A stretch of 32,247 bases of DNA from Alphaproteobacteria bacterium. Its GTDB lineage: Bacteria > Pseudomonadota > Alphaproteobacteria > Rs-D84. Position numbers and translations under genes: made by a program. Of the stretch, positions 28,148-30,102 are shown in pieces. The stretch covers positions 1 to 32,247 of the forward strand of contig JAGCOU010000041.1 of NCBI GenBank assembly GCA_017642565.1. The letters are read 5' to 3'. Under the pieces are notes generated by a model that ran no database searches, was not told the origin of the DNA, and was given only the letters and a program-made list of their open reading frames with translations. The first letter of the stretch is position 1, and each line of letters starts with the position of its first letter.

Positions 28148-28717
28148 ATGGCATCTTATATTGCAAATGATATGCGTGTGGGTTGGGTAATTTCCCATAA
28201 CGGTAAACGTTATTCTGTGACTTCTATTACAAAGGTAAAACCTGGCAAAGGTGGCGCTTTTGTTCAGGCTGATTTGCGTGATATTGATTCAGGTAACAAA
28301 GGTGGCGACAGATGGCGCGCAGAAGACAAAGTTGAAAAATTGATGGTTGAAGATTTGGAATGTCAATATTTGTACACCGATGGAACAGATGCGACATTTA
28401 TGAATTTGTCTGACTATGAACAGTTTACTATGCCAAATGAAAGTTTGGGTGAACAGATGAAATTTTTGGCTCCTGAAATGATTGTTCGTGCCAATTTTGT
28501 CGAAGGTCATCCAGTATCAATCACTTTGCCAAAAACAGTAGTTGCAACAGTTGAAGAAACTGAACCTGCATTAAAAGGTCAAACGGCAACCAGCAGCGGC
28601 GGCAAACCTGCAATTTTGGATAACGGTGTTCGCGTTCAAGTTCCAACCTTTATTGAACAAGGCGAAAAGATTGTGGTAAATACTGAAACATTAGAATATG
28701 TGGAAAGAGCAAAATAA
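28148..28717 (+). CDS. efp: Translation elongation factor P
   Basis: 189 aa. Contains the KPGKGGAFVQADLRD loop and the C-terminal GEKIVVNTETLEYVERA motif. Confidence 0.95.
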   Translation: MASYIANDMRVGWVISHNGKRYSVTSITKVKPGKGGAFVQADLRDIDSGNKGGDRWRAEDKVEKLMVEDLECQYLYTDGTDATFMNLSDYEQFTMPNESLGEQMKFLAPEMIVRANFVEGHPVSITLPKTVVATVEETEPALKGQTATSSGGKPAILDNGVRVQVPTFIEQGEKIVVNTETLEYVERAK

Positions 28718-28732
28718 ATTAGCATCTTTAAC

Positions 28733-28760
28733 AAAAACCGCCAACATGGCGGTTTTTTTT
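28733..28760 (+). terminator. Intrinsic terminator after efp
   Basis: ACCGCC (28737-42) pairs with GGCGGT (28748-53) with loop AACAT, followed by a T-run to 28760. Confidence 0.85.
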
Positions 28761-28763
28761 GGT

Positions 28764-28792
28764 TTGCTTTTTGGGATAATCATATTTATAAT
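28764..28792 (+). promoter_or_regulatory. Near-consensus sigma70 promoter (TTGCTT-N17-TATAAT)
   Basis: TTGCTT at 28764-69, an exact 17-nt spacer and TATAAT at 28787-92. Predicted TSS near 28799. Confidence 0.6.
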
Positions 28793-28798
28793 AATCTT

Positions 28799-28995
28799 GA
28801 ACCTGGATGGGATTTTAGGTTCGGGGCTGTCATAAGCCCATCTAATCCGGTGTGTAAAACACATCGTCAAATCCCCCAACCATTGGTTGGGGAGCCGCAG
28901 GCTATACAACAGGGGCAACCCGAAAGCCGCGGAATCAATGATTAGATGATTTATGAACTCCCCGACCGCCATTTTATGACGGTCTTTTTGTTTTT
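28799..28995 (+). ncRNA. Structured ~190-nt leader or small RNA, unclassified (candidate cis-regulatory RNA switch)
   Basis: The closing helix 28818-28847 / 28940-28967 is built from GGUUCGGGG/CCCCGACC, UCAUAA/UUAUGA and CAUCUAAUC/GAUUAGAUG. It encloses hairpins 28848-66, 28874-92 and 28895-932; the last is capped by GGG-GCAA-CCC. A weak terminator (GACCG 28964-68 / CGGUC 28980-84, then U-runs) follows. Confidence 0.55.
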
Positions 28996-29018
28996 AACAT
29001 AAAAAATGGTTGGGGAAT

Positions 29019-29393
29019 ATGAAAGATTCTATTTGTATCAAAGGTGTCACTTTTAAAAGAATTAATGAAGATTTGTTTAAAGAAATAGACCCAAACACAA
29101 TATTATTTTTTATGATATCACAATCTGGTCTGGTTGACAGACGCGGAACAATTTATATTTTCACCAAATCTGCGGCATTTTTTATGGACAGAGAAGATTA
29201 CGGCGATGGTTTCATAGATAGACTTTTGTTATCTGTAGAGGAATGGGATTTGATAAATGTATATTTTTGTGATTTGTTGATTATAGACCCAAAAATTTAT
29301 AATACTTTTGCGCGTGAACTATGTGCGCGAAACATACGTGATTTTTGGTTTGAAACAGCAACATGTGTTTACAGAGATAAATATATTGAATAG
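29019..29393 (+). CDS. Hypothetical cytoplasmic protein (124 aa)
   Basis: ATG 29019 is preferred over the track TTG at 29010. The SD-like GGTTGGGGA at 29008-16 lies 2 nt upstream. No motifs recognised. Confidence 0.6.
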   Translation: MKDSICIKGVTFKRINEDLFKEIDPNTILFFMISQSGLVDRRGTIYIFTKSAAFFMDREDYGDGFIDRLLLSVEEWDLINVYFCDLLIIDPKIYNTFARELCARNIRDFWFETATCVYRDKYIE

Positions 29394-29430
29394 TTTTGGG
29401 TATCTTTTTTTATGGACAACAATAATTAAC

Positions 29431-30102
29431 TTATTTTTTTAATGTAATTAAATATTTTTTCTGTGATGGGGAAATGCGAAATGATTCTGTGCATTTTTGA
29501 ATAGTTTTGTTATGTGTCCAAGTATCAAGATTTTTGTTTTCTATAATTTTTATAACTGAATCCCAATTTTTTGCCAATGCTGTCGCAAAATACCAAGCGC
29601 GCATCATATTAACATAATATTCTGTGCTTTTTACTTTTATCACCATATTCGCATATTTTAAATTAAAATTTTCGCCAAGATAAAAACGCATTAATAATCC
29701 AATTGCAAAACGTTGGGTATAAATATGTTTCGATTTAATCCATTTTTTTATGTATGGCAAAAGTTTATCAATGTTTTTTATAAATGTTTTTGGTATTAAT
29801 TGATCGCAAGTTGCCCAATTATCAACGTATACAAGAAATTTATCAACGTTTTTTATACATATTTCAAAATCTGGGATATTAGATAAAACAAAAGCGTGAA
29901 TTTGGTTTTCTTCAAAATATTTATGTGGCAGAGAATTTAAAAAAATTTCAGGATTTGAAATTGTTTTTGCATATTTTTTTAATTCTGGTGTATGAATCCC
30001 TATGATATTTTCTTTGTTTATGGTTGGTAATAAACTTGCATTGAATTTTGCAAATTTTTCATCGCGCATATTGAATAAATCAGTCACAATTTTGTTTGTC
30101 AT
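29431..30102 (-). CDS. DNA alkylation repair protein (AlkD-like HEAT-repeat family)
   Basis: 223 aa, helical repeat protein. The pattern ...ELKKYAK...HKYFEENQIHAFVL...WIKSKHIYTQRFAIGLLMRFYL...MRAWYFATALAKN fits the DNA alkylation repair enzyme family as I remember it. Confidence 0.6.
   Translation of the reverse strand: MTNKIVTDLFNMRDEKFAKFNASLLPTINKENIIGIHTPELKKYAKTISNPEIFLNSLPHKYFEENQIHAFVLSNIPDFEICIKNVDKFLVYVDNWATCDQLIPKTFIKNIDKLLPYIKKWIKSKHIYTQRFAIGLLMRFYLGENFNLKYANMVIKVKSTEYYVNMMRAWYFATALAKNWDSVIKIIENKNLDTWTHNKTIQKCTESFRISPSQKKYLITLKK

Follow-up and report, generated by a model that had tools for sequence, protein, structure and literature searches.

The leader RNA and its long-range fold

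We analyzed a 32,247-nt stretch of DNA from an Alphaproteobacteria bacterium (GCA_017642565.1, contig JAGCOU010000041.1, positions 1 to 32,247; the whole stretch is called the window), in which an RNA switch had been predicted between efp and an open reading frame (ORF) for a protein of 124 amino acids (aa). In line with the original prediction, a highly structured leader, which we find to be conserved, lies in cis directly before the ORF, with its own promoter at one end and a terminator at the other. Taken as a whole, the region forms a self-contained expression unit of promoter, leader RNA of ~195 nt, intrinsic terminator, short G-rich spacer, and gene. Two folds of the leader, termed A and B, compete for the same strands, and the leader recurs upstream of many other genes. 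The features are as follows.

28764 to 28792, + strand: promoter, with -35 hexamer TTGCTT (28764 to 28769), 17-nt spacer, and -10 hexamer TATAAT (28787 to 28792); seen in the sequence and at a fixed distance before the RNA in relatives
28799 to 28995, + strand: leader RNA, ~195 nt, from promoter to terminator; conserved TATAAT on its 5' side, intrinsic terminator at its 3' end
28799 to 28822, + strand: P0, 5'-terminal hairpin (28799 to 28807 with 28814 to 28822, loop UGGGAU); minimum free energy (MFE) fold and RNAalifold, 9 of 9 pairs changed on both sides in 92 sequences
28823 to 28847, + strand: 5' strand of the long-range stem (H1 28823 to 28826, H2 28830 to 28835, H3 28839 to 28847); covariation
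28824 to 28839, + strand: P2, local hairpin (28824 to 28828 with 28835 to 28839), an alternative use of the 5' strand of the stem; compensatory variation, first to form in prefix folding
28848 to 28866, + strand: P3 hairpin; MFE fold, 7 of 7 pairs changed on both sides
28874 to 28892, + strand: P4 hairpin, segment 2 (CCCCAACC, 28874 to 28881) with segment 3 (GGUUGGGG, 28885 to 28892); 8 of 8 pairs changed on both sides, putative anti-antiterminator
28885 to 28967, + strand: fold B, sRNA-Xcc1-like three-way junction (closing helix 28885 to 28894 with 28958 to 28967, P5 28895 to 28932, P6 28933 to 28937 with 28947 to 28951); putative antiterminator
28940 to 28963, + strand: 3' strand of the long-range stem (H3 28940 to 28948, H2 28951 to 28956, H1 28960 to 28963); covariation
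28964 to 28995, + strand: intrinsic terminator, stem 28964 to 28972 with 28976 to 28984, U-rich tract 28985 to 28995; fold and RNAalifold, conserved
29008 to 29021, + strand: G-rich Shine-Dalgarno region GGUUGGGG (29008 to 29015) and ATG (29019 to 29021); sequence, family-wide complementarity
29019 to 29393, + strand: 124-aa ORF, a conserved protein of unassigned function; ORF call and relatives, one of many gene types behind the leader

The efp stop codon is followed by the efp terminator (28733 to 28757), which lies just 5' of the leader promoter, as had been noted. The promoter sequence TTGCTT-N17-TATAAT is present, but the description "near-perfect" did not hold: the -35 hexamer agrees with TTGACA at only 3 of 6 positions, which is why a consensus scan missed the promoter. 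Its support comes instead from conservation across copies of the leader. Of 84 distinct copies, 40 had a perfect TATAAT, and in 65 the best -10 hexamer ended 6 to 7 nt 5' of the first P0 base. Judging from the sequence, transcription probably starts at ~28799. The G+C content was 0.475 at 28800 to 28999 compared to 0.24 to 0.36 in the AT-rich DNA on either side, in agreement with the predicted contrast to the neighboring intergenic DNA. The start codon of the 124-aa ORF (29019) lies 24 nt past the end of the U-run (28995). A 93-aa minus-strand ORF (28691 to 28972), antisense to the leader and overlapping the structured RNA, is most likely spurious.

Folding of the + strand gave a z-score of -6.2 against shuffled sequences, clearly more structure than chance would give. 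Fold A comprises P0, the long-range stem H1 to H3, a four-way junction, and the terminator. H1 (GGGG/CCCC), H2 (UCAUAA/UUAUGA), and H3 (CAUCUAAUC/GAUUAGAUG) all showed very strong covariation. RNAalifold, run without prior structure on 19 protein-anchored sequences (alignment A2), predicted P0, H1 to H3, P3, P4, and the terminator, and 23 of the 45 predicted pairs were changed on both sides. With P5 added to the structure for pair counts, 93% of the cells in A2 were paired, and the covariation score was 0.394 compared to 0.178 for shuffled columns and 0.06 to 0.08 for slid partners. The corresponding values for the 92 distinct sequences of alignment A3 were 94.3% paired cells, 54 of 59 pairs changed on both sides, and a score of 0.535 against 0.184 (shuffled columns) and 0.05 to 0.07 (slid partners). 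All four Watson-Crick pair types occurred at nearly every position of H2 and H3 in A3. G·U pairs outnumbered A·C mismatches by 485 to 61 in fold A, and this excess indicates that selection acts on the structure of the + strand RNA.

Conservation and compensatory change in relatives thus bore out the inner helices of the predicted closing stem (28818 to 28847 with 28940 to 28967). Its outer GGUU/GACC pairing was not supported, because GGUUC forms the covarying 3' strand of P0, a hairpin that had been overlooked, and GACC belongs to the terminator. The three enclosed hairpins (28848 to 28866, 28874 to 28892, and 28895 to 28932) were confirmed by the MFE fold and covariation. The four-way junction exists in the window, and some relatives have an additional hairpin in it; of the two AAUC joining strands pointed out earlier, the second is also the 5' strand of the alternative hairpin P6. 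The GCAA tetraloop is likewise present in the window but variable or absent among relatives, and hence is no conserved trait.

An alternative fold, the terminator, and the Shine-Dalgarno region

P2, P6, and the helix between segments 3 and 4 (3:4 helix, 28885 to 28894 with 28958 to 28967) conflict with fold A yet vary in a compensatory fashion. P6, for example, occurred as AAUCA/UGAUU, AGCAU/AUGCU, GAACA/UGUUU, ACUG/CAGU, and GUUU/AAAC. Together with P5, the 3:4 helix and P6 form exactly the three-way junction that Rfam names sRNA-Xcc1, and this fold B is the MFE structure of the isolated 3' half (-33.7 kcal/mol). A test of fold B on a raw MAFFT alignment failed through misalignment, and model-based alignments were used instead. 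In the one fitted to fold A, 84.3% of the fold B cells were paired, with a score of 0.196 compared to 0.143 (shuffled) and 0.01 to 0.05 (slid). A second covariance model, R2, was built from 16 three-way junctions, and 81 copies were aligned to it. In the resulting alignment of 79 sequences, 95.2% of the cells were paired, 20 of 26 pairs had changed on both sides, and the score was 0.328 against 0.152 (shuffled) and 0.05 to 0.07 (slid), with 97.4% pairing in P6 and 96.9% in the 3:4 helix. G·U pairs exceeded A·C mismatches by 182 to 23. Segments 2, 3, and 4 had also changed together in several lineages (GGUUGGAGG/CCUCCAACC, GGUCGAGGA/UCCUCGACC, and GUCGGGAAG/CUUCCCGAC).

The mutually exclusive pairings that had been predicted for the leader are indeed present, as the 3:4 helix excludes both P4 and the terminator; strict exclusivity is limited to the 2:3 and 1:4 pairings against 3:4. 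The terminator hairpin (28964 to 28984, -8.5 kcal/mol) is followed by the U-tract UCUUUUUGUUUUU and was present in 19 of 19 protein-anchored relatives. It had been recognized as GACCG/CGGUC plus U-runs, correctly except for the label "weak", and a simple scan did not list it because of a C·A mismatch in its stem. The 3:4 helix shares four nucleotides, GACC at 28964 to 28967, with the terminator, in whose 5' strand they lie. The geometry of the switch differs from that first proposed: the terminator coexists with the closing stem at a pair probability of 1.0, the helix competing for GACC is 28885 to 28894 with 28958 to 28967 rather than the outer stem, and the hairpin at 28874 to 28892 takes the place of a putative anti-antiterminator.

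Pair probabilities in the window depended on which segments were included. For the full-length RNA (28799 to 28995), they were 1.0 for the terminator, 0 for the 3:4 helix, and 0.97 for P4. For the 3' half only (28885 to 28995), where P4 is not applicable, the terminator fell to 0.07 and the 3:4 helix rose to 0.93 to 1.0. When segment 2 was added back by starting from 28848, the terminator returned to 0.999, the 3:4 helix to ~0, and P4 to 0.98. From these values, P4 would act as an anti-antiterminator, the 3:4 junction as an antiterminator, and 28964 to 28984 as the terminator, and the long-range stem is, in the folding model, a second lock on fold A. Folding of successive prefixes formed P2 first and then H3, and P2 was displaced after segment 4 had been transcribed. 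In many relatives, folds A and B lay within about 1 to 3 kcal/mol of each other at the decision point, and in L028, a copy with mismatched halves, fold B was ahead by 9 kcal/mol; these energies were computed with enforced pairs and are noisy. The 5' half of L028 (1994 to 2171, identical in L029) contains UUUAGAAAG and GGUACGUU, which are not complementary to GACUAUCUG and UUAUCAA of the 3' half, and thus H2 and H3 cannot form whereas the three-way junction is intact. Either natural recombination produced this copy, for which constitutive read-through is then predicted, or the copy is an assembly chimera.

We searched Rfam 15 for known classes. At the gathering score, nothing was found in the whole window or in 19 further loci. 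A permissive scan of 28700 to 29100 with E values up to 10 returned no riboswitch class, ydaO-yuaA, yybP-ykoY, and SAM-II/V included, and its sole notable match was sRNA-Xcc1 (RF02221) at 28885 to 28975, with 44.9 bits compared to the gathering cut-off of 53 (E = 6.7e-7 in this 401-nt search) and an alignment spanning model positions 1 to 87. The leader was therefore rightly said to fit no riboswitch class, but it is not wholly unclassifiable, since its 3' half is a near-threshold relative of sRNA-Xcc1. The best relative, L021, scored 49.4 bits, and no copy in the 36 loci scanned reached the cut-off. Conversely, R2 detected the sRNA-Xcc1 element of phage Aaphi23 (L034, 1997 to 2078; 45.1 bits, E = 2e-7), and because R2 was built from the leader family alone, the resemblance is reciprocal. 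R2 did not detect the copy in an Stx phage (L035), and the full-length leader model gave no match on the phage sRNA-Xcc1 loci, where only the 3'-half model detected one. A plasmid search with the Rfam sRNA-Xcc1 consensus gave one partial match. The core of the leader is thus a near-threshold relative of sRNA-Xcc1. As for other structured RNAs, ARAGORN found no transfer RNA (tRNA) or transfer-messenger RNA in the window, and the G-CCA that follows the closing helix was discounted as a tRNA-like feature for lack of conservation in relatives.

Structural comparison of the two RNAs showed common features: a three-way junction with a G-rich/C-rich closing helix, a first hairpin with a UAUACAA/GAAA internal loop and a GNRA-capped inner stem, and a short second hairpin after it. 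True sRNA-Xcc1 members also precede a co-directional gene (ant, symE, or ORF6N), at a distance of ~40 nt. They precede same-strand antirepressor (ant) genes at this distance in phage Aaphi23 and Stx phages, symE in integron cassettes of Xanthomonas, and the ORF6N gene of APSE phage, and Xylella carries five copies spaced ~380 nt apart. In Xanthomonas, sRNA-Xcc1 was seen on Northern blots as a discrete 88-nt RNA. However, the element of the leader family is twice as long and has three features that the Aaphi23 and Stx phage examples lack: its 5' half invades the junction, its P4 hairpin ties up the closing strand, and its terminator overlaps the closing helix. Moreover, the UAUACAA hairpin is reduced or replaced in many members of the leader family.

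The 8-mer GGTTGGGG occurs at both 28885 to 28892 and 29008 to 29015, and CCCCAACC lies at 28874 to 28881, exactly as described before. The exact 8-mer is not conserved, but complementarity of the Shine-Dalgarno region to the C-rich leader segments is a family trait. In the window, the duplex of the Shine-Dalgarno/start region was -20.2 kcal/mol with segment 2 and -18.4 kcal/mol with segment 4, and the MFE structure of the read-through transcript paired this region with segment 4. Across the family, GGG was found in 68% of the leader-gene spacers compared to 29% of control genes (p = 6e-4), and the duplex between segment 4 and the spacer averaged -8.7 kcal/mol compared to -5.2 for control genes and -5.5 for shuffled spacers (p ~1e-9); the control genes were drawn from Enterousia loci only, a possible confounder. 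Given the complementarity of segments 2 and 4, translation of read-through transcripts is probably gated too, and a translational layer of control is likely from the sequence. The P0 loop GGGAUUU (28809 to 28815) is in turn complementary to AAAUCCC (28869 to 28875), just 5' of and overlapping segment 2. Matching changes occurred in relatives (GGGAAUU/AAUUCCC and GGAAAU/AUUUCC), and the duplex energy was -5.3 compared to -3.4 kcal/mol for shuffled loops (p = 6e-7). These data are only suggestive of a pseudoknot between the P0 loop and 28869 to 28875, which would give segment 2 a partner in fold B. In a sub-type (L012; also L015, L030, and L026), the 3' strand of H2, UUUUUGAAAACG, is also complementary to codons for the conserved FKR motif in the ORF (UUUUCAAAAG); in L012, where the site lies ~50 nt past the 3' end of the RNA, 12 bp can form. 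This complementarity may be coincidence.

The leader family and its downstream genes

To collect copies of the leader, we scanned GTDB genomes twice with patterns anchored at its 3' end and then applied nhmmer and a covariance model, R1, built from A2. In total, 94 copies with 92 distinct sequences (A3) were obtained, and they precede many unrelated genes; the leader is hence not specific to one orphan ORF, as had been supposed. They came from metagenome-assembled genomes of Enterousia-like Alphaproteobacteria of gut, rumen, and termite, the closest loci being from Candidatus Enterousia or unclassified Alphaproteobacteria of animal guts. The window has a single copy, but several per genome were found elsewhere, with at least 4 in RUG12675, 3 in HGM16795, and 3 in JBKSMS. 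Copies in records labeled as Endomicrobiia (L077, 4726 to 4952) and Limosilactobacillus (L052, 1 to 120) likely reflect mis-binned contigs or transfer. A pattern scan of IMG/VR gave 11 matches, none of which fits the model; the one inspected had no hairpin. A literature search under Enterousia and by sequence found no description of the leader RNA.

In 82 of 86 distinct copies, the next 120 nt contained the start of a same-strand ORF, mostly after about 10 to 30 nt, which leaves no room for a separate promoter of the downstream gene. Besides paralogues of the 124-aa family, the downstream ORFs encode many proteins with signal peptides, an outer-membrane beta-barrel protein, autotransporters, GT2 and GT8 glycosyltransferases, a Mrr_cat_2/ResIII restriction enzyme, a C5 methylase, a SLOG protein, and XRE-type helix-turn-helix regulators. 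Tandem leaders before one gene occurred in L026 (1 to 161 and 209 to 399) and L049 (6275 to 6450 and 6577 to 6812). The two copies in L049 belong to different sub-families, and in L026 the first copy combines two variants as a hybrid. One sub-family has segments 3/4 of GGUUGGAGG/CCUCCAACC, a Shine-Dalgarno-like/anti-Shine-Dalgarno-like (CCUCC) pair; it comprises L049 6275 to 6450, L051 6265 to 6456 and 7030 to 7208, L056 2665 to 2848, and L089 7293 to 7466, and the L056 copy has no co-directional ORF behind it. In 6 of the 19 loci scanned (L037, L041, L044, L051, L056, and L059), tRNA genes lay no more than a few hundred bases from the leader, and these copies may occupy island-like or hot-spot sites.

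Promoter, RNA, and terminator preceded the ORF in 19 of 19 protein-anchored loci that retain upstream sequence. When the neighbors of 124-aa homologues were compared, as had been recommended, the gene upstream was efp, dnaN, yebC, or mnmE, and that downstream was an alkylation-repair gene, secB, ompH, or a gene for an AMP-binding enzyme. Since the neighbors vary by locus, the RNA and the 124-aa ORF travel as one unit. Within this pattern, efp sits between dnaN and the leader in the window (28148 to 28717, compared with L011, L017, L022, and L023), and in several relatives the leader lies directly 3' of dnaN. The post-dnaN sequence CATCTAAACAATTCTATTTAATTT is common to both arrangements, so efp was either inserted in the window or lost in the relatives. 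Downstream of the window, a record of the same species (L001, 4117 to 5276) contains a gene of a CopG-antitoxin family and a 308-aa gene without a Pfam match, a pair that may be toxin-antitoxin-like and is unrelated to the leader.

The 124-aa protein has no recognizable function, as had been stated, with no family in Pfam and no fold match in the PDB or BFVD for a confident AlphaFold model (predicted local distance difference test 86, predicted template modeling score 0.83). Its family is tiny, with 29 close relatives (clusters; alignment A1) and 11 distant ones. A profile search located the domain C-terminal to DUF192 (PF02643) in three larger proteins (P0033, P0035, and P0038), of which P0038 also has a weak FtsK/SpoIIIE-like N-terminal match below the Pfam cut-off. 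By residue count the protein is acidic, and nothing indicates that it serves as the effector of the leader.

We compared the leader with several known systems. As in riboswitches, a conserved structured domain shows covariation, and a computed platform of mutually exclusive terminator and antiterminator shares 28964 to 28967. The downstream genes, however, show no coherent metabolic or transport theme. This diversity does not point to a metabolite; the only kind of signal that would fit it is a global one, for example a second messenger. Attenuators (trp-leader type, riboswitch platforms, T-box, BglG-RAT, and ANTAR) resemble the leader in having three successive competing pairings, the middle of which (here 3:4) shares a strand with an intrinsic terminator, and several leader copies per genome would define a regulon, as do ANTAR/RAT sites and cyclic di-GMP riboswitches. 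Unlike these systems, the leader has no leader peptide, tRNA-binding features, or match to a known aptamer; its antiterminator is a whole three-way junction, on which a long-range stem of ~20 bp, varying in sequence between copies, places a further lock.

The c4 antisense RNA of phages P1 and P7, with its a1/b1 elements, is encoded in the leader of the genes under its control. The leader family is similar in that variable loops (P6 and P2) are complementary to variable single strands of the same transcript and related elements lie upstream of ant; comparison with the Rfam c4 models was limited to the general Rfam scans. It differs in that the Shine-Dalgarno complementarity comes from conserved C-rich segments, not variable loops. 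A c4-type target was rejected, as duplexes of the P6/H2 strands with the 75 nt downstream were no better than shuffled ones in 14 of 18 loci. The order of promoter, structured RNA, intrinsic terminator, and protein gene is also that of the type III toxin-antitoxin system ToxIN. However, there are no tandem RNA repeats (none in 28600 to 29500), and the downstream genes are unrelated and mostly encode secreted or envelope proteins.

A model for the leader RNA and its alternatives

A cis-acting RNA switch is the best-supported reading of these data, with the geometry, the single-ORF assignment, and the classification of the original prediction corrected. With moderate confidence, we consider the leader a transcription-attenuation switch, possibly also a translational one, in which two exclusive folds would decide on termination. 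In the default state, fold A, the 5' half would pair with the 3' half via H1, H2, and H3, segment 2 would pair with segment 3 as P4, and the terminator hairpin would form beside H1, so that transcription stops and a short RNA is released. In fold B, segment 3 would pair with segment 4 and close the sRNA-Xcc1-like three-way junction with P5 and P6. Because the fold B helix takes up GACC, the terminator hairpin loses its 5' strand and cannot form, and RNA polymerase would read into the gene. The logic would be that of a three-element attenuator, with P4 as anti-antiterminator, the 3:4 helix as antiterminator, and 28964 to 28984 as terminator. Candidate signals would be a protein or small molecule that stabilizes the three-way junction, or an occupant of segment 2 or of the 5' half. 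We infer that the folds switch in vivo and thereby control read-through. As the same leader stands before many envelope, glycosyltransferase, restriction-modification, and other genes per genome, these genes would thus form one RNA-controlled regulon.

Several observations weigh against this model. In the window, fold A leads by 9 kcal/mol when the decision point is reached and by 16 kcal/mol once the RNA is full length, and an effector would therefore have to make up a large difference or act kinetically. Each of the two folds was scored on an alignment fitted to its own model, and the percentages of paired cells are inflated as a result. In principle, pseudoknots might let P2 exist alongside H2, and P6 alongside a shortened H3, instead of alternating with them. 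Conservation was strongest in segments 1 to 4 and the terminator rather than in the junctions, but this is partly a collection effect, since later copies were gathered with a pattern of segment 4 and the terminator. Few junction positions reach 70% conservation, and this scarcity of strongly conserved nucleotides weakens the small-molecule version of the model. Finally, segment 2 is free in fold B, and this complicates the role of Shine-Dalgarno masking in that state.

The energetic preference for fold A is also what a constitutive leader would show, and we regard this alternative as unlikely, although it survives better than the others. Fold A would then be the sole functional state, serving as a 5' stabilizing hairpin, a partial terminator with fixed low read-through, and perhaps an RNase III-type processing stem, and P2, P6, and the 3:4 complementarity would either arise in passing during folding or be left over from an ancestor resembling sRNA-Xcc1. 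It agrees with the MFE structure and the terminator probability of 1.0 in the window, with the early formation and later displacement of P2 in prefix folding, and with the stronger covariation of fold A (0.535 compared to 0.328). However, 97% pairing with compensatory changes in P6 would not be expected for remnants or short-lived intermediates, nor would the joint changes of segments 2, 3, and 4 in several lineages. The near-equal energies of the two folds in many copies also speak for the attenuation model, and the Shine-Dalgarno complementarity would need another purpose if the leader were constitutive.

The leader copies might alternatively be stand-alone sibling small RNAs (sRNAs) acting in trans, with their C-rich segments as anti-Shine-Dalgarno sequences on G-rich mRNA sites and the downstream gene transcribed only by incidental read-through. 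We consider this somewhat less likely still. The discrete 88-nt sRNA-Xcc1 that accumulates in Xanthomonas, the strong promoter and terminator of the unit, the tandem copies (L026 and L049), at least one copy without a co-directional ORF (L056, 2665 to 2848), and the CCUCC sub-family are all consistent with it. On the other hand, a co-directional ORF directly follows 82 of 86 copies, too closely for a second promoter to fit, all 19 full-length protein-anchored 124-aa loci depend on the leader, and both C-rich segments are base-paired in fold A. Action in trans and in cis is not mutually exclusive.

A repeat acting at the DNA level, such as a miniature mobile element, a recombination site, or an integron-attC-like site, whose inverted repeats are kept alike by recombination and not by selection on RNA, is very improbable. 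It would account for the many copies beside accessory-type genes, the tRNA genes flanking 6 of 19 loci, the location of sRNA-Xcc1 in integron cassettes, and the hybrid copies (L028 and the first of L026), but not for the strand-specific 8-to-1 excess of G·U over A·C, the copies of one genome that differ in H2/H3 yet remain complementary (L043), the promoter and terminator conserved in fixed register, or element ends that are a promoter and a U-tract instead of inverted repeats. Least credible is a type III toxin-antitoxin-like module in which the RNA is an antitoxin binding the 124-aa protein: the ToxIN-like layout with a small ORF and the joint movement of RNA and ORF between neighborhoods fit it, but the RNA lacks tandem repeats and also stands before genes for outer-membrane proteins, glycosyltransferases, and others, and the 124-aa protein matches no Pfam family or fold, including that of any toxin.

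Returning to the attenuation switch, we tentatively suggest a bolder version, which we hold to be possible but doubtful. The sRNA-Xcc1-type three-way junction would be the sensor of a new RNA-switch class for a global signal, a small molecule or a dedicated protein. Joined in uncultured gut Alphaproteobacteria to an anti-antiterminator and a terminator, it would co-regulate a regulon of contingency-like surface genes, lipopolysaccharide glycosyltransferase genes, restriction-modification genes, and the 124-aa genes. If so, the sRNA-Xcc1 elements before phage ant and integron symE would also be cis-regulators, not trans-acting sRNAs.

The leader is a large RNA family (at least 92 distinct copies) with very strong covariation that is absent from Rfam 15, and it joins the list of orphan structured leaders. 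Through it, sRNA-Xcc1, which has been described until now solely as a "virulence sRNA" acting in trans, gains a link to a concrete mechanism of regulation in cis, and the many natural variants of the leader, including the copies with mismatched halves, are ready experimental material. Its hosts are uncultured, host-associated Alphaproteobacteria described as having reduced genomes, in which transcription factors may be scarce. In these bacteria, our data suggest that surface proteins, glycosyltransferases, and restriction-modification genes are under joint control by one RNA device.

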